From the NCBI GenBank assembly GCA_023474425.1, contig JAMCXX010000004.1, forward strand, positions 148,729-212,728: a DNA stretch of 64,000 nucleotides, given 5' to 3'. The notes beneath the pieces are model-generated. The model was not told the DNA's origin. It ran no database searches and saw nothing but the letters and a program-made list of their open reading frames with translations. The translations under genes and the position numbers were made by a program. Positions 1,113 to 62,067 of the stretch are shown one piece after another. Origin of the DNA: Patescibacteria group bacterium (GTDB lineage: Bacteria > Patescibacteriota > WWE3 > JAMCXX01). Position 1 is the stretch's first letter. Each line of letters opens with the position of its first letter.

Positions 1113-3338
1113 ATGTGGTATCCTTTTATAAACTGCCGGGCCTTTATGCAGAAACCGATTCTCTACTTTACTTTAAGCACCCTGGTAATTCTTTTGGCGC
1201 TGGCAATCACCTGGCCTATTCTGCCCCACATTCTCCCCCACGCCGATGAATACCTTTTTTACACCAACGCCTGGAGTATCTTAAGCGGAAAAGAACTACA
1301 AAATTATTTCCACGTCGCCGCCACCGAATACGCGTTCACCGCCTTTCTGTCCGTAGTCAACATGCTTACCAAGTCAGGAATAAACTTCCCAAATGGCGAT
1401 CCCGATGTGGTTACTTACTATTACGGGCGCATTTTTGGCCTAATTCTTTACCTTATAACCTACCTCGCTGCCGTGGTTGTACTCCAACGTGGAGAAAACA
1501 AATTCAAGCTTAGGACTCTGTTCTTTACTCTTCTTTACTTTGGTTCCCTGGGAATCTTTGAGAGGGCGTTCCGGGTTAACTCCGACGAGACCTCGGTTCT
1601 GGTTATCCTTAACTTCCTGATTGTTTCACTTTACTTGCACAAAAAACGCTCCCAGCCGTTCAAATTTTTTCTCGTCAATCTCGGCTTCGGTTTTTTGGCA
1701 ACCTTTACCAATTTCAAATCGATCTATTTGGCTACTCCTATACTAGTTTTAAATACTCTGCTGCCGTTTATTTTTTATGACAATGAAAAAGAAAACCACG
1801 AATCATTCTACACAAAATTATATAAAATGGCACTCTATACATTGGGAGTTTTTGGCGGAACGGTGGCCTTGTGGGCCATCTTTATTCCCAAACCCTTTAA
1901 TTATTTCAACTTCTGGATGTCTTTAAGAAACACCATCGTTACCCAGTCCAACTTTGATTTCAACTTTCCCAACCAAACCAACGGCAACCTGGGTAGCTGG
2001 TCCTCTTACTTTTATGATTTCTTCGTCGAGTACATCGGGCTGACACAACTGGCGGCCATCTTGACGGTCGTTGGGACCGCCTATTATCTTGGGCGAAAAC
2101 GCTACTTAAGTTTTATTTTTGATTTTTTAAGAAAACAATTAAAATTTCAAAATTTTAAAACTGGCGAACTCTTTTTAAGCACCGAACTTATTATTTTGGC
2201 CAGCGCTTTTTGCTACTATCTCGGTATCGGCCACGCTACGACTCACTGGTCACGCTGGGGCTTGCCCGTCGGTTTTTTCGGGTTGATAATTTTAGGAACC
2301 GTCCTGGAAAAGAGTTTCCTTTTTATAACTAACGAACGGGCAAGCTGGCCGAGAAGACCGAAATTTTGGCTGGCTGTTTTACTACTCTTTACCTTCGGCT
2401 GGTCACTGAGGTTTGCCTTAGCCTACGACATTTCCCGAAGCAACTACCCCAGTCAGGGCGGACTAAAACTGACCTCAGCTGATGTAAAGCAATTTCTCAC
2501 GGATAAGGGAGTAGCTCCGTCCGACTACACGAAGACGGCAGCTTGGTACGGCTTTGGCTCGGAGGGTATAGGTAACATTCTCTTGAGCCAACTAACCGAC
2601 CCCGAACACAAAGAAACCAAATATCTTTTTTGGCCCTATTGGAATATTGGCGTTCTTTATGAAAATGGGATGGACGACAAAGAAAGCGCCAACCAAATGT
2701 ATCTGGTCAAGAAATACGCGCAAAAAGTTGACTTCCGCTTCCCCACTCTCCTCTCGCACTATATTCACTACACCAAAATGTTCGCCTGGAGGTACTTGGG
2801 CATTACCTGGTACCCAGAAGTTGAATCGCTGGTAGAGTCCCAGTACGGCGTGGTTGAACTTAAGAGCTTGCCCAATCGGATTATGCTTGACTACGATGTA
2901 CCCTTCGACAAAATGACCTACTATTACACTCCTTACTCCGAAATTTTTAACCTTAAAAACCTGCCCAACGGCTATATGTTTCCGCCCTGCTATTCCAATC
3001 CGTTTGTCGTCTACGCCCAAGACGGCAAACCCGTGCCGGAAAACCCCGTTTTGGGCGGTTCTGGCAAAACGGCCGGTCTTTATTGCCACGGCACCCGGTT
3101 TGTGATGACTTTTAAAGGTAATTACTGGATCAAAATTGAGGGCTTGCCCAAGGGAGACGAAAACGGGGCAATGATCTATTCGGCCTACAACTACACTTAC
3201 GATCCGATAACCAAGACTATCTACTTCCACAACCCTTCCGATGCTTATTCGGCCGAGTTCGGTGTTGCTACTAGAGAAAAAAACGTACCCGGACTTAAAT
3301 TTCACGTCTCCTATGACTCCTTGGTGAACTCGAACTAG
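1113..3338 (+). CDS. Polytopic membrane protein with a large C-terminal soluble domain; possible GT-C-type glycosyltransferase
   Basis: 741-aa ORF. The N-terminal ~430 aa hold many hydrophobic helices and the C-terminal ~300 aa are hydrophilic. It sits in the glycosylation island. No family was recognised. An alternative start is the ATG at 1146. Confidence 0.45.
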   Translation: MWYPFINCRAFMQKPILYFTLSTLVILLALAITWPILPHILPHADEYLFYTNAWSILSGKELQNYFHVAATEYAFTAFLSVVNMLTKSGINFPNGDPDVVTYYYGRIFGLILYLITYLAAVVVLQRGENKFKLRTLFFTLLYFGSLGIFERAFRVNSDETSVLVILNFLIVSLYLHKKRSQPFKFFLVNLGFGFLATFTNFKSIYLATPILVLNTLLPFIFYDNEKENHESFYTKLYKMALYTLGVFGGTVALWAIFIPKPFNYFNFWMSLRNTIVTQSNFDFNFPNQTNGNLGSWSSYFYDFFVEYIGLTQLAAILTVVGTAYYLGRKRYLSFIFDFLRKQLKFQNFKTGELFLSTELIILASAFCYYLGIGHATTHWSRWGLPVGFFGLIILGTVLEKSFLFITNERASWPRRPKFWLAVLLLFTFGWSLRFALAYDISRSNYPSQGGLKLTSADVKQFLTDKGVAPSDYTKTAAWYGFGSEGIGNILLSQLTDPEHKETKYLFWPYWNIGVLYENGMDDKESANQMYLVKKYAQKVDFRFPTLLSHYIHYTKMFAWRYLGITWYPEVESLVESQYGVVELKSLPNRIMLDYDVPFDKMTYYYTPYSEIFNLKNLPNGYMFPPCYSNPFVVYAQDGKPVPENPVLGGSGKTAGLYCHGTRFVMTFKGNYWIKIEGLPKGDENGAMIYSAYNYTYDPITKTIYFHNPSDAYSAEFGVATREKNVPGLKFHVSYDSLVNSN

Positions 3339-32269: not shown

Positions 32270-32613
32270 AATACAAAACCTAAGAAACCGCCCAAAGTGT
32301 CAATTAAAACATCCACGGCGTGGGAGCCCCGGCCGGGTACGAACCTCTGGTGAAACTCATCGGTTACTCCGTAAAGAAAAACGAAAAACAATCCATAGAA
32401 AACTTTTTTCTTCTCAATTTCCCAGAAATTTCTGGCAACACTCAAGTAATACAACAGATACAAAACTCCATACTCAAACAAATGAACGGATTTATGGACC
32501 ACAAAATCAACAACGCTGTTCCGCGAGGCGTGCACGGACGGCAGGCTGGAACCCAAAAAAATTAAGGCAGCCCAAACTAAAAGAGGAAGTTGAAGCCTAA
32601 ACCTTTTTTCCAT
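32224..32613 (-). CDS. VanZ-family membrane protein
   Basis: Start moved to the ATG at 32613 (MEKRFRLQLPLLVWAALIFLGSS...). KSVHLFEYGVL and DEFHQRFVPGRGSHAVDVLIDTLG. Confidence 0.7.
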   Translation of the reverse strand: MEKRFRLQLPLLVWAALIFLGSSLPSVHASRNSVVDFVVHKSVHLFEYGVLYLLYYLSVARNFWEIEKKKVFYGLFFVFLYGVTDEFHQRFVPGRGSHAVDVLIDTLGGFLGFVLWKFLRQRALQRRKI

Positions 32614-34303
32614 ACATTCTAATTCTAACGGACAAACCAATAAATATGAAAATCCAACCCAAAACATAAAAATCACCATTAATACCGGTGCGGGGAAGTT
32701 CCTGGATTTGCGCTCCGAGGATCGAGCCTTTTATTATTTCGGCTTCGGTGATATTAACAATATCGCTCTGGAAACGTGGTAGAATCCGGTAATTCCGGTC
32801 TCCGCTTTTTAAAAGTCCGTACTGGGAAACGATCCCTACCACCTTAACCAAATCACCCGATGAGAGCTTAGGCTTCACAATACCGGTAGAATCTTTAATG
32901 TAGACCTTAACCCGACCCGAGCCGTCGTTAAGATAAAATGTATCGCCGCTCTGCTCCTCCAATTTTCCCTCAACTTTCACCAAGCTTCCCTCGTAATTTT
33001 CGGTGGCCTCGCCGGTGAGTATACCGCGGGGTTCAACATTAAGGGCATCCGGCTGAATTAGAGTGACTGTTTCCGTTTTAATGTATTTCTCCCCGTTGCT
33101 CTCCTCAAGAGTACTGGAAACTTTCACCTTATCACCCAAACCAAGCTTGGAATCCGGTGTCTGACTGCAGGAAATTTTAATACCCGACTCCTTGTCCCAA
33201 ACATAAAGTTCTTTGTCACCCAAAAGTCCCGGCGGCGAGGAAATATATGCCTCCAAAGAAATCTTGTGGCCCAGAGGCAAACTCTTTATTTCGGTAATTA
33301 TACCCTTAAAGATCTCCGGATCTCCGGCCAAAACATTAGCCGCTCCGGGCGTGGGCTGGGAAGTTTCCTCCCATGAACCGTTAATTAGGGCGTACGAAAA
33401 ACCCAATTTAGATTCGCTATAATCAACTGTATCGGAAACCACCCCATCCGGCCTAATGAGACGAACTTGATCGGCCTCGCTGTTATTTAGAATACTGGAA
33501 GATTTATTGGGGTCTGAGGAGAAATAAAAAACAAAGTAGCCCGAAGACGGCAATGTGGCGCTAAAGGTTTTGGGCGAAGAGCCGCCGTCTTTATCGTCAA
33601 TCTGCCAGCCGGTTAACTCGGCCGCAGCCGTATCCGAAGAATTATATAGCTCCACCCACTCGCTGCCCATCTTGGGATTGGGCATAAATTCGTTGATTTT
33701 AACCGTCTGCGGGTAGTTGACAGGAACCGGCTCTTTGTATGCCTGACCGGGAGTGCCTCCGGCCGTGTAACTTCCAACCCAGTTGGACCCGTCATTAACA
33801 CCGGCAAGGTTTTCCTTCTCAATACTGTGTCCCTTGCCCAAAGTTCCCCGCCAGCTTGTTTCGTAAGTAACCTGGGCAAAAGGCGTGCCGTTGGAACCTT
33901 CGCGAAAACCAAGCAGCTGCGAAGTGTTATTTAAATCCATTGACGACGCTTCCAAAAGAATCCCGTTGTAATCCGGATAAAGGTTTTTAAAACTTATCGC
34001 ACTGTGGGCAATCACAAAATAGCTACGAGCATCTACCGTTGCCTCTTTTTCTCCGCTGGGCATCTTTAAAAGGCGATTATCGCTGCCGTCAATTAATCTT
34101 AAAGAATCGGCGGAGGACCCAAGAGTAATAGTTGTATCGGCGGACCCGTTGTTATATACTTCAACCCACTCATCATCGTTGCCGGAACTCTGCGGCTCAT
34201 ACATAATCTCCGAAACAATAAAGTCTTGAGACGAAGCAAAAATTTGATCGCCGAACAAAAACAGGAACGAAAGAAAAAACAGAAAAATAAACTTTACATT
34301 CAT
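32597..34303 (-). CDS. Cell-surface protein: two lamin-tail domains, an OB-fold and an LPXTG-type sortase signal
   Basis: Signal peptide. LTD motifs SEIMYEPQSSGNDDEWVEVYNNG and INEFMPNPKMGSEWVELYNSS. OB-like GSLVKVEGKLEEQSGDTFYLNDGSGRVKVYI. C-terminal LPRTG, a hydrophobic helix and a basic tail. Confidence 0.75.
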   Translation of the reverse strand: MNVKFIFLFFLSFLFLFGDQIFASSQDFIVSEIMYEPQSSGNDDEWVEVYNNGSADTTITLGSSADSLRLIDGSDNRLLKMPSGEKEATVDARSYFVIAHSAISFKNLYPDYNGILLEASSMDLNNTSQLLGFREGSNGTPFAQVTYETSWRGTLGKGHSIEKENLAGVNDGSNWVGSYTAGGTPGQAYKEPVPVNYPQTVKINEFMPNPKMGSEWVELYNSSDTAAAELTGWQIDDKDGGSSPKTFSATLPSSGYFVFYFSSDPNKSSSILNNSEADQVRLIRPDGVVSDTVDYSESKLGFSYALINGSWEETSQPTPGAANVLAGDPEIFKGIITEIKSLPLGHKISLEAYISSPPGLLGDKELYVWDKESGIKISCSQTPDSKLGLGDKVKVSSTLEESNGEKYIKTETVTLIQPDALNVEPRGILTGEATENYEGSLVKVEGKLEEQSGDTFYLNDGSGRVKVYIKDSTGIVKPKLSSGDLVKVVGIVSQYGLLKSGDRNYRILPRFQSDIVNITEAEIIKGSILGAQIQELPRTGINGDFYVLGWIFIFIGLSVRIRMYGKKV

Positions 34304-34329
34304 CGCAAAGAGCCCGCAGGGTAATATGA

Positions 34330-34442
34330 CAAAATGGCATTCCGCAGCGTGAGCGACCTGCCCGCATTGCTACGCAAAGCGTTGCAGGCGGGGGCTTAGC
34401 GCCCCGCCAGTGTCTTTCCTGGCGGGGACAGCGGCCATTTTG
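34330..34442 (-). ncRNA. Candidate structured RNA or cis-regulatory element, copy 1; class unknown
   Basis: Closing stem caaaatggc (34330-38) / gccattttg (34434-42). A 9-bp hairpin 34402-10 / 34419-27 with loop tgtctttc. A second hairpin at 34361-92. A homologous covarying copy lies at 61271-61356. The strand is assigned from gene context only. Confidence 0.5.
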
Positions 34443-34471
34443 GCGCTTACCCGAGGGCTCGCCCAAATCAA

Positions 34472-35734
34472 CTAATTCACGGTTACTCTCTCGACTTCGG
34501 TAATAGCGCTCAACGGATACTTGCTGGTAAAACTTATATCGTGCCCATTTTCCACAAACGGATCATCCATTACATAGTTCCCCCCGGAGCCGCTCTTTAG
34601 AACCACAAAGTGAGCGGGACCTCTGTAGAGACCCACGATTACCGGCCGTCCGGCGGCCAGCTCGCTGTCAATACTGGCCGTGGTCGGCGAAAGACTGACC
34701 CGCAAAATCCGAACGCCGTTAACGGTAATATCTTTCCACAAATAAGCGGTGGAGCTGTCCGGACTAAAAAAAGCCGCAGGATTGGCGGCAATATCGGCCG
34801 GATTAAGACCTTTCTGGTAGTGGCTGGCGATCATGGCGCTCGAAGATACAAGACAGCCATACTCGGCCACGGAAAGAGTGGAACTTCCCAAAGGCTTGGC
34901 TCCCCAACTAGAGTCTCTCTGGTTATAATAACAGCCCCAGCCGTCGCAAAAAGTCTGATTGGACAAAAGACTGGCGCCACCCTGCAGATTAACAAATCTC
35001 TGGATAGCCGCCTGCTCGGCAATCACCTGGGCTAAAAGCTGCTGGTATCTGTTTTCGTCGCTGGCTGTAGCCTGCAATAGGTTCTGCTTCTCGGCTCTTT
35101 GCGTTTGCAGAGATTGGTTGTAGGCCTCCAAGTTCTTCTTGGTCGCTTCGATTTGATCTTTTAAAACCTGCACCTGGTCTTTTTTGTCGCCCAAAACAAT
35201 TTTTTGCGATTGGAAAGCCTGCTGGGTATCCTCCATTTGCAAAAGATATTTACTGTCCTGAAGCTCAAAAACCTGCAGGTATTTAAGACGGTCAATGAAA
35301 TAGGAAAAATCCTGCCCGCCCAAAACAAGGTCAAGGGGGGTTACGGCGGAACTGCGATAGAATGCGTTGGCCCGACCGGCGAATATGGATTTCTGACGGT
35401 CAAGCGTTTGGCCGAGAGTATCAATTTTTGACGAAACCAAACCAATGTCGCTGGTCAGTTTTTCCAACTCGGCCTCATTTAGTACGATTTGCGTCTTGGC
35501 CTGTTCAATTTTAATTTGGGTTATATTGATTTGACTGTCCATGAGACTGATTTGATTCTGAAGAGTCTTTTTCTGGCTTTGCAGTGAAGCAATCTTATCT
35601 TCATACACCTTTTGTTGCTCCTGCAAACTTTTAAGCTGATCTTCCGTGGTATCGGCGAGACTAATCTTCCCGCTTCCTACCCCAATAAAAAGAAAAAATA
35701 AAAAAAGGAGAAACAACCGGGCAGTATTATTCAT
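34472..35734 (-). CDS. Secreted coiled-coil protein with a C-terminal papain-like (C39-like/CHAP-like) Cys-His peptidase domain; putative FtsEX-controlled cell-wall hydrolase
   Basis: Signal peptide, ~230 aa of heptad-rich Q/L/K sequence, then YYNQRDSSWG...AEYGCLVSSSAMIASHY...GRPVIVGLYRGPAHFVVL...MDDPF. Immediately downstream of ftsE-ftsX. Confidence 0.55.
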   Translation of the reverse strand: MNNTARLFLLFLFFLFIGVGSGKISLADTTEDQLKSLQEQQKVYEDKIASLQSQKKTLQNQISLMDSQINITQIKIEQAKTQIVLNEAELEKLTSDIGLVSSKIDTLGQTLDRQKSIFAGRANAFYRSSAVTPLDLVLGGQDFSYFIDRLKYLQVFELQDSKYLLQMEDTQQAFQSQKIVLGDKKDQVQVLKDQIEATKKNLEAYNQSLQTQRAEKQNLLQATASDENRYQQLLAQVIAEQAAIQRFVNLQGGASLLSNQTFCDGWGCYYNQRDSSWGAKPLGSSTLSVAEYGCLVSSSAMIASHYQKGLNPADIAANPAAFFSPDSSTAYLWKDITVNGVRILRVSLSPTTASIDSELAAGRPVIVGLYRGPAHFVVLKSGSGGNYVMDDPFVENGHDISFTSKYPLSAITEVERVTVN

Positions 35735-35737
35735 GGC

Positions 35738-36628
35738 TTAAACTCGAAGATACTTTCTGACACCCAAAAAGCTGCTGGCCGCGCCAAGTAAGGGTCCCAA
35801 CAGAAAATGAAAAGCGGCAACTGCGGCTAGGTAAAAATAAATGGTGTGGTCCAGGGTAACGGTCTGTGTAAAAAATTTTAAGTACGGAACAGTGAATATA
35901 AGAGTAACAGCAAAGATAATGAACGAGATGGCAGAAGAAAAAAGACCGTAAATAGCCCCCTGCCAAATAAACGGGGAGGTTACCTGTCCGTCACTGGCAC
36001 CAACAAGACGCATAATTTCGATTTCGTCCGCGCGGATTTTTACCGAAATACCCACCGAAAGCAAAACAACGAGCAGGGAAACGAGAAGCATTGCCGAAAC
36101 CAAAGCGAGTCCAACCACCCTTAAGATAAACGCCCAGCGCCCCAGGGTTTCCACAACATCCTTAAAAAAGACCACCTCCTCCACCTCCGGCCGGGCTTTA
36201 AGCTCGGCTGCCAGAGAATTAAGGGAGGAAATTTTTCTGGTTTTAATTTCTAATGACGCCGGCAGGATGTTGGCGCTTACCGCCTCCAAAAGACCCGGCT
36301 CGTCTTGGTGCTGACCCAAATATATTTTTAAGGCATCGTTCTGTGAAACATACTTCACCGACTCCACTTCGCTGCGTTTTAGCAGAGTGTCGCGGATTTC
36401 CAGAATCGTCGGCTCGGCCACATCGGTTTTAAAAAAAACGGTTATTTGAGCTTTGTCTTCAAGACTCCGCAGCAAAAAGTGGGAAAAAACAAAAGCCGAG
36501 GCAAAACTTAAAAAAACCAGAAAACTTAGGCTCATAACAAAAACCGAAGCCAGGGTTAAAAAACGGCTGCGCCGAATATATTTAAAACCAGTTTTTAACG
36601 AATGGGGCCGGACCAAAAATCTAGACAT
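35738..36628 (-). CDS. ftsX: Cell-division ABC transporter permease-like protein FtsX
   Basis: 296 aa. One TM, an extracellular domain and three C-terminal TM helices. Overlaps the ftsE stop. Confidence 0.8.
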   Translation of the reverse strand: MSRFLVRPHSLKTGFKYIRRSRFLTLASVFVMSLSFLVFLSFASAFVFSHFLLRSLEDKAQITVFFKTDVAEPTILEIRDTLLKRSEVESVKYVSQNDALKIYLGQHQDEPGLLEAVSANILPASLEIKTRKISSLNSLAAELKARPEVEEVVFFKDVVETLGRWAFILRVVGLALVSAMLLVSLLVVLLSVGISVKIRADEIEIMRLVGASDGQVTSPFIWQGAIYGLFSSAISFIIFAVTLIFTVPYLKFFTQTVTLDHTIYFYLAAVAAFHFLLGPLLGAASSFLGVRKYLRV

Positions 36629-37298
36629 AGGTTCCCTTTTTATCGTCTTTAATTATGCGGCCACGATCAATTTTAACCACCCGTTTCTTAAGAGAGTTAA
36701 CAATTTCGCTGTCGTGGGTGGCCACAATCACCGTGGTTCCGCGCTTATTGAGTTCGTCCAAAATTTCCATAAGCCCCCAGGTAAGCGCCGGATCCACTTC
36801 GGCCGTGGGCTCGTCGGCCAGAATAACCTTGGGACAGCCCACCAGTGCCCGCGCCAGAGCCACCCGCTGGCGCTCGCCGCCCGAAAGCTGCCAGGGAAAG
36901 TTGTCGACCTTCTCGGAAAGACCAACTAAGTCCAAAGCCGCGGTGGCCTGCTCGCTTATTTCTTTTTCGGCTTTGCCCAAAACTTCCAAAACCAGGGAGA
37001 CGTTTTCATAAACGGAAGCGGTTGGCAAAAGCCGAAAATCCTGGAAAACAACGCCAATGTCGCGCCGGAGCTTAAACAAATCCGGCCGCTTAAGAGACGT
37101 CACCTCTTTCTCCTCAAAAAAAACCTTGCCGGCTTCCGGCTTTTCCTCACAGTAAATAAGTTTTAAAAGCGTGGTTTTGCCGGCTCCAGAAGGACCAATG
37201 AGAAAAAGGAAATCTTTGGGGTGTACCTCTAAATCCACGTCTGCTAGGGCCCGAACTCCGTTGCCATATGTTTTGGAAACTCCTTCAAACCGAATCAT
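36621..37298 (-). CDS. ftsE: Cell-division ATP-binding protein FtsE
   Basis: MIRFEGVSKTYGNG, GPSGAGKTTLLK, LSGGERQRVALARAL and ILADEPT. Confidence 0.9.
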   Translation of the reverse strand: MIRFEGVSKTYGNGVRALADVDLEVHPKDFLFLIGPSGAGKTTLLKLIYCEEKPEAGKVFFEEKEVTSLKRPDLFKLRRDIGVVFQDFRLLPTASVYENVSLVLEVLGKAEKEISEQATAALDLVGLSEKVDNFPWQLSGGERQRVALARALVGCPKVILADEPTAEVDPALTWGLMEILDELNKRGTTVIVATHDSEIVNSLKKRVVKIDRGRIIKDDKKGTYV

Positions 37299-59046: not shown

Positions 59047-61215
59047 CTACAACCCGATCTGTGACGCGATTCCTTTCATCGCCTTAAGAACAATCTCGAT
59101 AAACTCCGCAAGTTTTATGCCTAACTTTTCTTCGCATTGTTCAATTTGCCTGCGGTCTACACCCGCGGCAAATTCTTTGCTCTTCCATTTTTTAAGCACC
59201 GATTCAACTTCGACGGATGATATTTTTTTGTCCGGTCGGACTAAAGCTACCGAGACTATAAAACCGGTCAGTTCGTCGCAGCACTCAAGCGCCCATTCCA
59301 TATTTGACTGAATCTCGGAAAGATTGGTGTGGCGCCGATTGTGAGATTTAAGCCCTTGCACCACCGGGCCTTCGCGGCGACCTTCTCCGGAAAGCCATTC
59401 CAGAGCCGCCATCGTGTGACGGGACGGTTCGGCTTTGGTCTCTTCCCAATCGGCATCGTGAATTAAGCCCAGCGCTCCCCACGCCTCTTCATTTCCCCCA
59501 AATTTTCGGGCCAGAGCCCTCATGGCCGCCTCTACGGCCAAGCAGTGCCGCAGCAGGTTTTGGTTTTTAATGTGACTGCTCACAATTTGGAAAACTTTTT
59601 CCCTTGACGGAAAGTCCCCCACAGGTTCCAGAGGTAGCTTAGTCCCTCCCTCTTTGTCATTGCGAGGTGTTCGGCCCACGGCAATCTCTGCATCATTAGA
59701 TGACGTAATAGATTGCTTCACTTCGTTCGCAATGACGGAGGAAATGGGGGCACCCTCTGGCCTTAGCGTGGGGAAAAGAATTACATCTTTAAGGGTATGC
59801 CTACCGGTAAGGACGGAAACGAACCGGTCCACTCCCATGCCCCAACCGGCTGTGGGCGGCATGCCGTACTCCAAAGCCCGAATGTAATCTTCGTCCAAAA
59901 CCTGGTACTCGGCCAATCCCTCTTTGTTCATTTCCGCTTCCTTTTCCCATCGGCTCCTCTGATCAATCGGATCGTTAAGTTCGTTGTAGGCATTCACCAT
60001 CTCCCGCCCGGCAATAAGAAGCTGAAAACTGGCCGCCTTAGATTCGTCATCCTCTTTGCGCTTGGCTAAAGGCTTCATTTCGTAGGGGTGGTCCACAAGA
60101 AATAGCGGCCCAAAAAGGTGTGGCCGCACCAATTTTTTGTAGAGCTCGTCCAAAAGCGGGGCGTAGCCCACCACTCCTTCCAAATCAATTTTTAAACCGG
60201 ACTCTTTAATGAACCTGACGGCCTCTTCAAAACTGCGCACCCGGTCAACGTCCAATCCGGTATATTTAATTATAGCATCATGGAAGGTTAGCCGCGGCCA
60301 GGGTGGCGTAAAATCAATAACATTACCTTCGAAATCCACCATTGGCTTACCCAAAACTTTCTCAACCGTCTTAGAGAGCAGTTCTTCGGTAAAACACATG
60401 AGCTTTTCGTAGTCCGAGTAAGCCCAGTAAAATTCCAGCATGGTAAATTCCGGATTATGCTCGCGGTCAATGCCTTCGTTGCGGAAATCTTTGCCGATTT
60501 CGTAAACCTTTTCGAACCCTCCGACAATCAGCCGTTTGAGGTAAAGCTCGTCGGAAATACGCAAATAAAGATTTAAATCCAAGGACTCGTGGTGAGTCAC
60601 AAAAGGCTTGGCCGTGGCCCCGCCGTAAATGGGCTGCAATACGGGCGTTTCTACTTCCAAAAATCCCTCGGCCTTCAAAAGACGGCGAAGCTCTCCCACC
60701 ACCAGGCTTCTCACTTCAAAAACACTTTTGGAATCGGGATTAATTAGCAAATCCACATAGCGCTGGCGATAAATCTCTTCTTTATCTCTAAGACCGTAAA
60801 AATCGCTTGGCAGCGGCCGCAGAGATTTAGTGAGTATGGAAAAACTCTTGACGCGAAGGGTGAGCTCGCCGGCCGCCGTTTTAAAAAGCTGGCCGGTAGC
60901 AACAATAAAGTCGCCCAGGTCCAAAAGCGACAAATGTTCGTAAGTTTTTTGACCCAATTCCGAGAGACTAAAAAAAAGTTGGATTTTACCCGATTCATCA
61001 ACCAGATCGGCAAATGTGGAACCGCCGTGGGCCCTAATCGCCCGCAATCTTCCGGCCACCGACGCTTCGGTTTCCAAAGTCTTCTCCAACAATCCGCCAA
61101 CAGGCTCTCGGATTATTTTTGGCTGACTAAAGGGGTTAAAACCCAATTTCTTAAATTTTTCCAGCTTTTGCAAACGGGCTTGGCGTAACTCATTGAACGG
61201 CTGCGGCATAAGCAT
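59047..61215 (-). CDS. lysS: Lysyl-tRNA synthetase (class II) fused to a C-terminal HD-domain phosphohydrolase module
   Basis: The first ~495 aa are a complete LysRS (OB fold plus class II motifs, ending ILFPTLRPE). A ~35-aa linker follows. The last ~190 aa are an HD/HDIG-type module (LLRHCLAVEAAM...GLIHDADWE...VALVRPDKK). Confidence 0.85.
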   Translation of the reverse strand: MLMPQPFNELRQARLQKLEKFKKLGFNPFSQPKIIREPVGGLLEKTLETEASVAGRLRAIRAHGGSTFADLVDESGKIQLFFSLSELGQKTYEHLSLLDLGDFIVATGQLFKTAAGELTLRVKSFSILTKSLRPLPSDFYGLRDKEEIYRQRYVDLLINPDSKSVFEVRSLVVGELRRLLKAEGFLEVETPVLQPIYGGATAKPFVTHHESLDLNLYLRISDELYLKRLIVGGFEKVYEIGKDFRNEGIDREHNPEFTMLEFYWAYSDYEKLMCFTEELLSKTVEKVLGKPMVDFEGNVIDFTPPWPRLTFHDAIIKYTGLDVDRVRSFEEAVRFIKESGLKIDLEGVVGYAPLLDELYKKLVRPHLFGPLFLVDHPYEMKPLAKRKEDDESKAASFQLLIAGREMVNAYNELNDPIDQRSRWEKEAEMNKEGLAEYQVLDEDYIRALEYGMPPTAGWGMGVDRFVSVLTGRHTLKDVILFPTLRPEGAPISSVIANEVKQSITSSNDAEIAVGRTPRNDKEGGTKLPLEPVGDFPSREKVFQIVSSHIKNQNLLRHCLAVEAAMRALARKFGGNEEAWGALGLIHDADWEETKAEPSRHTMAALEWLSGEGRREGPVVQGLKSHNRRHTNLSEIQSNMEWALECCDELTGFIVSVALVRPDKKISSVEVESVLKKWKSKEFAAGVDRRQIEQCEEKLGIKLAEFIEIVLKAMKGIASQIGL
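59656..59736. repeat. GTCAT-type palindromic repeat, copy E, in frame inside the lysS-HD linker
   Basis: Perfect 10-bp termini gtcattgcga / tcgcaatgac. Nested inverted repeat gcaatct / agattgc. 81 nt, which is 27 codons. Confidence 0.75.
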
Positions 61216-61270
61216 ATTTTAGGACAAAAGGAATAATTATGATACTAATAAAAACAATCCGCAGCAAAGG

Positions 61271-61356
61271 TTTTTCTCGCGGCATTCCGCAGTCCGCAGA
61301 CGAGGCATAGCGCTGCGAAAGTCTCTTTCCTTTCGCAGACAGCGGCCGCGAAAAAA
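61271..61356 (-). ncRNA. Candidate structured RNA or cis-regulatory element, copy 2; homologous to 34330-34442
   Basis: Closing stem tttttctcgcggc / gccgcgaaaaaa. A 9-bp hairpin 61313-21 / 61330-38 with loop tctctttc. Conserved blocks ggcattccgcag, ggcatagcgc and gacagcggcc are shared with copy 1. Confidence 0.5.
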
Positions 61357-61383
61357 CCGTAGCGAGGATTGTGAAACACTTGA

Positions 61384-61869
61384 TTAAAAAATTTTGAGGA
61401 TGGTGTAAATAAGCTTGCCCACCGGCGCTTCCACCTCGGCCTTGTCGCCGGTTTTCTTGCCCAAAAGCGCCTGACCCAAAGGCGATTCATGCGATATTTT
61501 GTTTTTATTGGGGTCGGCTTCGAGCTCGCCCACAATTTCAAATTCCTGCTCGCTGCCCTCCAGATGAACCAAAACACGACTGCCAACACTCACCTGCGAC
61601 TCGCGCGGTTCCCGGACGTCTTTTTTGGTAATTACTTCGGCTCTTTTTACCACCTCTTCGAGTTCAGTAATGCGGCCTTCAATAAAGGCCTGCTCTTCCA
61701 AAGCCGACTCGTATTCCGAATTTTCGGTTATATCGCCAAGCTCCCGGGCGGACTGAATTCGCTCGGCTACTTCCTTGCGTTTGGCGGTTGTTAAATTTTC
61801 CAGCTCATTCTTTAGTTTTTCTAAGCCCTGCGCGGTAACAAAAAATTTCCCGCCTTTGTTATTTTCCAT
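61384..61869 (-). CDS. greA: Transcription elongation factor GreA
   Basis: LEKLKNELENL...RELGDITENSEYESA, with a C-terminal FKBP-like domain (SHESPLGQALLGKKTGD). Start at the ATG at 61869. Confidence 0.9.
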   Translation of the reverse strand: MENNKGGKFFVTAQGLEKLKNELENLTTAKRKEVAERIQSARELGDITENSEYESALEEQAFIEGRITELEEVVKRAEVITKKDVREPRESQVSVGSRVLVHLEGSEQEFEIVGELEADPNKNKISHESPLGQALLGKKTGDKAEVEAPVGKLIYTILKIF

Positions 61870-62067
61870 AATTCGCAAAAGCTAAAATACTCTATATAAA
61901 CACTTATGTATTTTGGATACTTTCCCCTCTAACCGTAAAAGTTCGCGGAACCAACAACGGCTCAATTTAAAACTACGCTTTCCCGCTTGTCAAGATGTGT
62001 ATCTTATGGGCCTCTAAGTGATTCTGCTGGACACCTCCCTTCCACCATTGCTAAACTAACCTTGACC

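Follow-up and report, generated by a model that had tools for sequence, protein, structure and literature searches.

We analysed a 64,000-nucleotide stretch of DNA from a member of the Patescibacteria (contig JAMCXX010000004.1, positions 148,729 to 212,728), referred to here as the window. Within it, a GC-rich, self-complementary element occupies most of a 168-nt spacer (34304-34471) that runs from the stop codon of an open reading frame (ORF) at 34472-35734 to the ATG of an ORF at 32597-34303. This element is copy 1 (c1) of a small family. A second copy (c2) lies elsewhere in the window, and two further copies (c3 and c4) lie within the dinB genes of relatives; these four are called intact throughout. 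The minus strand is the sense strand of the genes flanking c1. An initial annotation of this DNA had described c1 as a structured leader with mutually exclusive hairpins, upstream of a surface-protein gene. The features of the two window copies and of the genes around them are as follows.

34308-34462, minus strand: whole element c1, made of the long stem P0+P1, hairpin P2 and a copy-specific hairpin P3 (covariance-model matches; fold z -3.3)
34434-34460, minus strand: c1 5' arm of the long stem (P0+P1), holding the CCUCG block, with GGC at its end (alignment A5, columns 3-29)
34399-34432, minus strand: c1 P2 hairpin of 12 bp with two bulges, loop GAAAGACA and conserved flanks GCUGUC...GCGC
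34361-34393, minus strand: c1-specific P3 hairpin, the basis of the proposed alternative helix (gap columns in alignments A3 and A5)
34310-34338, minus strand: c1 3' arm of the long stem (GCCAUUUUG ... CUGCGG GCUC; A5 columns 127-155)
61253-61373, minus strand: whole element c2, without P3 (covariance-model matches; fold z -2.9)
61345-61371, minus strand: c2 5' arm of the long stem (A5 columns 3-29)
61310-61343, minus strand: c2 P2 hairpin CUGCGAAAG-GAAAGAGA-CUUUCGCAG plus conserved flanks
61255-61283, minus strand: c2 3' arm of the long stem, followed by UUUUUAUUAG
34472-35734, minus strand: upstream of c1, a gene for a coiled-coil PcsB-like / C39-like peptidase (Pfam)
35738-36628 and 36621-37298: ftsX and ftsE, preceding the PcsB-like peptidase gene
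32597-34303, minus strand: downstream of c1, a gene for a secreted protein with a lamin-tail domain (LTD; Pfam LTD, E 2.3e-25)
61384-61878, minus strand: upstream of c2, greA (by translation; homologues are named GreA)
59047-61215, minus strand: downstream of c2, lysS (lysyl-tRNA synthetase) with a C-terminal extension (Pfam tRNA-synt_2, E 9e-85)

In every copy the 12-bp hairpin P2 sits inside a long, imperfect inverted repeat of 26 bp (P0+P1), and the fold of c1 is a long irregular stem capped by that hairpin. In c1, P1 is formed by CAAAAUGGC (34442-34434) pairing with GCCAUUUUG (34338-34330) and P2 by CCCCGCCAG-GAAAGACA-CUGGCGGGG (34427-34402), with P3 at 34392-34361. All stems named in the initial annotation are present at their positions, as are the 168-nt gap, the end of P1 26 nt before the ATG and an additional CUGCGG motif (34318-34313). 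The interval that it gave, 34330-34442, is part of a larger element, since the outer stem P0 widens c1 to 34308-34462, beginning about 10 nt past the upstream stop codon and ending 6 nt before the LTD ATG. Across the copies the element measures 119-155 nt (c1 155, c2 121). The description of a GC-rich block was accurate, with a GC content of 0.63 for c1 and 0.55 for c2, compared with 0.46 for the window. P3 belongs to a 45-nt stretch found only in c1, at a place where the other copies have 9-15 unstructured nucleotides. Thus the proposed three-way junction is present in c1 and does not hold as the general architecture. Both element-bearing spacers (34304-34471 and 61216-61383) are exactly 168 nt long despite elements of 155 and 121 nt, which is probably a coincidence.

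The blocks CCUCG-N15-GGCCGCUGUC, the P2 loop GGAAAGAsA, GCGCUAwGCC and CUGCGGAAUGCC-N16-CUGCGG are identical in c1 and c2 and equally spaced, while the helices between them differ in sequence and keep their complementarity. The P2 loop reads GGAAAGAsA in three copies and CUUCGGUA in c4. Asymmetric conserved blocks (CCUCG, GGCCGCUGUC, GCGCUAwG, UGCC and CUGCGG) set the polarity of the element, whose halves at the DNA level are 5' CCTCG..GGCCGCTGTC and 3' TGCC..CTGCGG.

The sense strand of c1 folds at -79.1 kcal/mol, compared with -65.8 +/- 4.0 kcal/mol for dinucleotide shuffles (z -3.3; 1 of 200 shuffles equal or better). The c1 fold therefore beats chance, though not dramatically. The complementary strand of c1 folds even better (z -5.1), as expected of a palindrome, and the sense strand of c2 gives a z of -2.9.

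A covariance model was built from three copies (R1) and from four copies (R2), and the search of relatives that had been recommended did recover homologues with compensatory changes. Standard pairs make up 92.3% of cells in the four intact copies, a value that falls to 37-46% when the partners are slid by 1-3 columns. Double compensatory changes occur in 20 of 42 pairs, compared with 3-5 in the slid controls, and the observed values were reached by 0 of 500 shuffles. Fifteen of these lie among the 26 pairs of the long stem and five among the 12 pairs of P2, which is 100% paired in the four copies. Where c1 has P3, the consensus fold predicts a short helix, which the four-copy alignment did not support. 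Even the terminal 6-8 bp vary among copies yet pair (GAGCCC/GGGCUC, ACAAUCC/GGAUUGU and GUGAGUCC/GGACUCAC; A5 columns 3-8 with 150-155). Despite its palindromic nature the element is strongly polar, with the sense strand scoring above 110 bits and the antisense strand about 14 bits in the covariance model. Eight G-U pairs stand against two A-C mismatches on the sense strand, which is also the G-rich strand at every site (three independent locations, four intact copies; GC skew of the opposite strand -0.07 to -0.10). Template switching in palindromic DNA (quasipalindrome mutagenesis) can yield matched changes in both arms without selection. Because template switching can match the arms of inverted repeats, covariation alone is no proof of RNA function, and the comparison here draws on four or five sequences, which represent three independent sites at most.

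A scan of the window with filters off returned only c1 (117.6 bits with R1, 113 with R2) and c2 (120.9 and 116.2 bits), everything else scoring at most 15 bits; the second copy that had been placed near 61.3 kb is thus real and spans 61253-61373. Motif searches allowing mismatches found no copies in the window beyond these two. Among relatives, c3 (loci L013 and L015-L018) scores 128.1 bits, and c4 (L014, L027 and L029) was found by the covariance model with 83.6 bits for the three-copy version and 114.6 bits for the four-copy version. Contigs of species-representative genomes were also scanned with the pattern GCCGCTGTC..GGAAAGA..GCGCTA, which gave three chance matches within coding DNA of unrelated bacteria. 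A scan of metagenomes gave one true match, c3, and the single match in a viral collection, on a high-GC contig, was rejected by the covariance model as chance. Roughly 20-30 kb of each of two relatives contained one copy each. No additional copy was detected by the covariance model in about 250 kb more DNA of relatives, nor in another 21 kb from the source lineage (L026), and the model found no half-elements elsewhere in the window or in the DNA of relatives.

Searches at the protein level were likewise without a true match. A concatenated six-frame peptide query for in-frame copies gave none, its candidates probably being swamped by irrelevant word matches. The c1 antisense peptide, compared with a library of 1.84 billion representative proteins, returned only P0241, which was rejected as a relative because the ORF runs over an unrelated tandem repeat and the score is the sum of five weak stretches. 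P0241 is a predicted 327-residue protein of five tandem units of about 57 residues (..FFSCPHCHPERLRRILSSRVVRFFAVAQNDRWGLVK..), encoded in some unrelated genome. As for known RNA classes, Rfam 15 gave no match at the gathering score over the whole window and only chance-level matches at E<=10 over 34250-34520, the best reaching 19.3 bits where the gathering score is 34, in agreement with the earlier statement that the element fits no known class. The window holds neither tRNA nor tmRNA genes. Reading of the sequence led to rejection of an integron attC site, as neither GTTRRRY nor RYYYAAC boxes are present, and also of hammerhead and other small ribozyme cores, T-box, 6S or SRP RNA, and Dif or Xer sites.

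The copies in relatives have a different setting. Both c3 and c4 sit within dinB, a gene for a Y-family DNA polymerase (Pfam IMS and IMS_C), antisense to the gene, and the reading frame is open throughout. An in-frame expansion of dinB occurs in three related Patescibacteria lineages:

L013:3239-4645 (= L015:10001-11407): dinB with in-frame expansion, first lineage
L014:24-1385 / L027:10001-11422: dinB with in-frame expansion, second lineage
L026:10001-11335: dinB with in-frame expansion, source lineage

The expansion, encoded by the strand antisense to the palindromic element, directly follows the catalytic SIDEA motif and adds 19 to about 48 residues, with the ORF intact in all three lineages. 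Element-bearing DinB proteins have 468 and 453/473 residues, compared with about 413-423 in homologues. Alignment to solved polymerase IV structures places some 48-50 extra residues between the SIDEA strand and the next helix, in a segment coding for a surface loop. In a multiple alignment the uninterrupted homologues P0124 and P0126 have a loop of 14-16 residues at the insert site, which is filled in P0121 and P0123. The order P-type ATPase-dinB-TP_methylase is shared by the three lineages, so the three dinB loci are orthologous; their DinB proteins are 63-75% identical. Between c3 and c4, 21 stem pairs are unchanged, 9 show double compensatory changes, 3 differ via G-U and 5 include a non-pair. 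The dinB of the source lineage has a loop of 34 residues and a rearranged 102-nt remnant of the element (L026:10352-10510), which the covariance model no longer detects. This remnant keeps the GGAGUCCUC 5' end and a P2-like hairpin, CCGUCAG-ACCGAAUA-CUGACGG, and its fold is a long hairpin (z -4.2). The most economical history has a single old insertion into dinB before the three lineages split, followed by in-frame insertions and deletions. Measured against the flanking codons, the model core of c3 is shifted from that of c4 by about 27 nt, and on account of this offset two independent insertions into the same dinB loop may apply instead. A short direct repeat, GTAGTCCG-N6-GTAGTCCG, lies directly 3' of c3 inside the dinB insert (L013:4241-4275); it is missing from c4 and accounts for part of an offset of 24 nt between c3 and c4.

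Further observations concern the surroundings of dinB. L016:8259-11005 and L017:7660-10871 come from one population and are 99.9% identical, and they diverge past a gene for a 123-residue protein downstream of dinB. Beyond this point L016 continues into a 421-residue ORF with a weak match to the rve-type integrase core, also seen near dinB in L013, and L017, which does not have this ORF, continues into methyltransferase genes. The divergence is probably an insertion sequence (IS) insertion or a rearrangement polymorphism. The covariance model found no element-like ends at the rve-type ORF, whose far boundary is off the contig. The same two contigs also differ by 67 nt in or just before the P-type ATPase gene (L016:5013-5017 and L017:4346-4414), where the products as called have 831 and 855 residues.

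At the window loci, c1 and c2 both lie in short spacers, co-oriented with the flanking genes, and each starts about 10 nt past a stop codon. The greA-lysS junction that holds c2 is syntenic in L002/L004, L009, L019, L020 and L023 (GreA identity 65-74%), and inspection by eye together with the covariance model found the element absent from the greA-lysS spacers (74-236 nt) of all of these. One of the empty-spacer relatives comes from the same samples as c3, and the metagenome of L019 also holds a c4 contig (L028). The element can thus be in a genome and yet be absent from its greA-lysS spacer. Filled and empty orthologous sites were therefore seen both at greA-lysS and at the dinB loop, in comparisons between species rather than strains.

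Several other features of this region were recorded. The LysRS of the window has 722 residues, including a C-terminal extension of about 220 residues with a weak HD match (E 7.8e-4, below the curated cut-off). A long LysRS also occurs in the relatives L002 and L009 (706-727 residues), and that of L020 has 456 residues without the extension. In L002:2718-3850 (also L004-L007), apparently from the relative with c3, two tandem greA paralogues (167 and 157 residues) lie upstream of lysS, with a serine recombinase gene (L002:390-1934) about 0.8 kb farther upstream, and the 236-nt greA-lysS spacer of L002 holds a different GC-rich hairpin (GAGGGGTGCC..GGCGCCCCTT). The regions upstream of lysS at L002:3900-4087 and L008:4619-4660 share CTAGCGCCCT, followed by TAGAATAGCC(C/T)(T/C) right before the ATG. 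This -10-like hexamer, 6 nt from the lysS start in L002 and L008, suggests from its sequence a leaderless lysS mRNA; in the window, TAAAAT directly precedes the lysS ATG. Positions 1-32000 of the window form a large cell-envelope glycan cluster with GT2 glycosyltransferases, a 1078-residue GT-C AftD-like protein, a YfhO-like membrane protein, a DegT aminotransferase, epimerases/dehydratases, a carbamoyltransferase, a flippase and a radical-SAM enzyme, together with several large membrane ORFs without a Pfam match (e.g. 1113-3338).

Together, dispersion over unrelated contexts, presence and absence at orthologous sites, raised GC content, in-frame insertion into an enzyme gene and a decayed copy point to a small bacterial palindromic repeat. 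The fallback offered in the initial annotation, a repetitive extragenic palindromic (REP)-like element or a DNA-level palindromic repeat, came much closer to this evidence than its leading proposal. With moderate confidence, we conclude that the element belongs to a small, dispersed, low-copy, polar palindromic repeat family that is conserved in structure and is most likely selfish or mobile rather than a gene-specific RNA switch. Its carriers form a narrow group of related Patescibacteria, among which the family would have spread by occasional insertion. Because its termini co-vary instead of being conserved, the repeat may be recognised and propagated as a folded single strand, like REP/RAYT or IS200/IS605-type hairpin DNA, and not via sequence-specific terminal repeats. 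Conservation of one strand's fold and of a few unpaired blocks, the strong polarity and the constant G-rich-strand orientation fit elements handled in this way, as judged from at most three independent sites. Pairing could be kept either by selection on the fold or by template-switch correction between the arms of the palindrome.

Several observations weigh against a mobile repeat. Among the roughly 55 ORFs of the window, Pfam identified no transposase, RAYT or integrase families, and no autonomous partner was found within the 64 kb. Copy number is very low (2 in 64 kb, then 0-1 per locus of 11-30 kb). No recent insertion was seen, and no filled/empty pair was found among near-identical strains; the flanks that were read show no clear target-site duplication, the element ends being not fixed to the nucleotide. 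Furthermore, the dinB insertion looks ancient and orthologous, yet its fold is kept, as seen in the nine double compensatory pairs between c3 and c4 and in the stable fold of even the L026 remnant. Similarly, c1 and c3, which come from different genomes and different loci, agree in 36 of the 43 unpaired columns and in 59 of the 76 paired ones. Such long-term conservation exceeds that expected of a decaying selfish insert and fits a functional element.

This constraint gives some weight to the alternative that the element is a functional structured nucleic acid of a new class, present in few copies per genome, with its fold under selection and not primarily selfish DNA. We regard this as possible but clearly the less probable reading. 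It could take the form of an independently transcribed small RNA (an antisense RNA at dinB) or of a hairpin site in single-stranded DNA bound by a host protein. Strong covariation, exactly conserved unpaired blocks, retention of the fold at the orthologous dinB site across proteins of 63-75% identity and even in the remnant, the excess of G-U over A-C, the strong polarity and consistent G-rich-strand orientation of the element, low copy number and the lack of an Rfam match all agree with it. In opposition, a promoter scan found no sense-strand promoter-like site before any copy, the genomic contexts have no common feature, the element is missing from the orthologous spacers of relatives and is lost or rearranged in the dinB of the source lineage, and the P2 loop is not conserved. 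The small number of independent sites and the capacity of template switching to produce apparent compensatory changes without selection also count against it. Since the constraint is above that of a dead insertion, there remains a minor chance, which we put slightly lower still, of an undescribed Patescibacteria element maintained by selection, either as a small RNA from the G-rich strand or as a strand-specific single-stranded DNA hairpin recognised by a protein of the host or of a mobile element.

Improbable, in our judgement, is a domesticated REP-like mRNA element, in which each copy between genes would serve the gene before it (that of the PcsB-like peptidase, or greA) as terminator or 3' stabiliser, or would provide an intercistronic processing site. 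[quoted passage not shown] However, no U-run follows the outer stem of c1, c3 or c4, a terminator scan called no sense-strand terminator at c1 or c2, and termination at the dinB copies, in the middle of an ORF, would be harmful. Additionally, the LTD ORF begins 6 nt after c1, so transcription must cross the element and the LTD mRNA must include it. 

Under the favoured reading of a dispersed repeat, too, c1 lies in the LTD leader or intercistronic region; its stem would bury the 30-40 nt before the start codon, and its 3' arm is inferred to cover the region where a ribosome-binding site would lie. Thus c1 may damp or stabilise LTD expression as a side effect of its position, not as a ligand-controlled switch, and the U-run of c2 could terminate some greA transcripts. 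Effects of this kind on neighbouring genes are plausible but probably incidental, and no other copy has either feature.

Least credible is the proposal with which the initial annotation began, a riboswitch or attenuator in the 5' untranslated region of the LTD gene: the stability of c1, the conserved junction nucleotides, the 7-8 bp alternative helix of c1 and the 8-bp helix of c2, marginally beyond chance, are what it has in its favour, and it is very improbable given that c2 precedes lysS, an unrelated gene, that orthologous lysS leaders do not have the element, that the other two intact copies are antisense within coding sequence and that no Rfam class matches. The alternative helix itself (GGCGGGG with CCCCGCC) is, like P3, unique to c1. 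When the 3' strand of P2 was compared with all downstream sequence, the longest alternative helix reached 8 bp in both c1 and c2, a length that 728 and 86 of 2000 shuffles respectively equalled or exceeded, and 6 bp in c3 and c4, equalled or exceeded by 1656 and 362 of 2000. Helices of 6-8 bp, reached by 4-83% of shuffles, amount to no conserved switch.

The closest analogue of the repeat described here is the Rickettsia palindromic elements (RPEs; Ogata et al. 2000, as reviewed), which are 105-146 bp long, form long stem-loops and occur both between genes and in frame within genes whose proteins are functional (PMC2229807, PMC10969869). In common with RPEs, the present repeat is a palindrome of about 105-150 bp with a long stem-loop, lies in spacers and in frame within conserved housekeeping genes, leaves the host ORF intact with some 35-50 residues gained in a tolerant region, has no known transposase and resides in a host with a reduced genome. 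In contrast to RPEs, it differs in phylum and in sequence, numbers 2 copies per 64 kb where R. conorii has 44 copies, is read in its intragenic copy on the strand antisense to the polarity of the element, and has termini that co-vary where RPEs have a 12-bp terminal inverted repeat. Its dinB insert also looks ancient, with pairing kept across lineages. Homology to the Rickettsia RPE families is unlikely given the different phylum.

Other known repeats share fewer traits with the element. Like REPs and BIMEs with their RAYT (Y1/HUH) partners and IS200/IS605-derived elements, it is a GC-rich extragenic palindrome between co-directional genes, conserves the hairpin of one strand and a few unpaired bases rather than the stem sequence, shows an orientation or strand bias and could affect mRNA ends. 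REPs are described as being 20-40 bp long with a GTAG or CGTC tag (PMC3733652). The present element, at 119-155 nt, is branched or bulged and has no GTAG or CGTC at the ends of c1, c2 and c4; no RAYT or TnpA gene is found among the window ORFs, and REPs are not usually in frame within genes. Some copies of bacterial MITEs have an ORF running through them, and MITEs can exert cis effects on neighbouring genes (PMC2229807). Classical MITEs (Correia/NEMIS, ERIC, RUP) resemble the element in being 100-170 bp long, giving long stem-loop transcripts and lying between and occasionally within genes. They differ in that the sequence of their terminal inverted repeats is conserved, that they have target-site duplications (TA or other) and that a parent IS can be recognised; none of these is evident here. 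With co-varying terminal pairs, no evident target duplication and no transposase match in the window ORFs, the element does not look like a classical DDE-type MITE. Riboswitch expression platforms and attenuators are comparable to c1 only, a structured leader rich in GC that lies right before a start codon and whose junction nucleotides are conserved, and they differ from the family in that it has no conserved alternative pairing or gene association and has copies antisense inside an ORF.

In our search of the literature, no paper was found that describes such elements in Patescibacteria. As a family the repeat described here is new, and its kind, the bacterial palindromic repeat, is a known one. 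Its recognition removes a false riboswitch lead, as the mutually exclusive hairpins are confined to one copy and are no better than chance. When genomes are scanned, structured spacers rich in GC within streamlined, AT-leaning genomes need to be checked for dispersed and intragenic copies before a cis-regulator is called. In-frame palindromic repeats, so far best known from Rickettsia, also occur in the ultra-small, gene-dense genomes of Patescibacteria. Here dinB provides a natural experiment, in which a 120-nt hairpin insert is carried in frame in an enzyme of essential fold and its pairing is kept across proteins of 63-75% identity. The case bears on how selfish DNA makes new protein loops and on whether covariation in inverted repeats counts as evidence of RNA function. 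If the functional reading were true, the dinB copy would be an overlap of a protein loop and a nucleic-acid structure rather than a fossil insertion.

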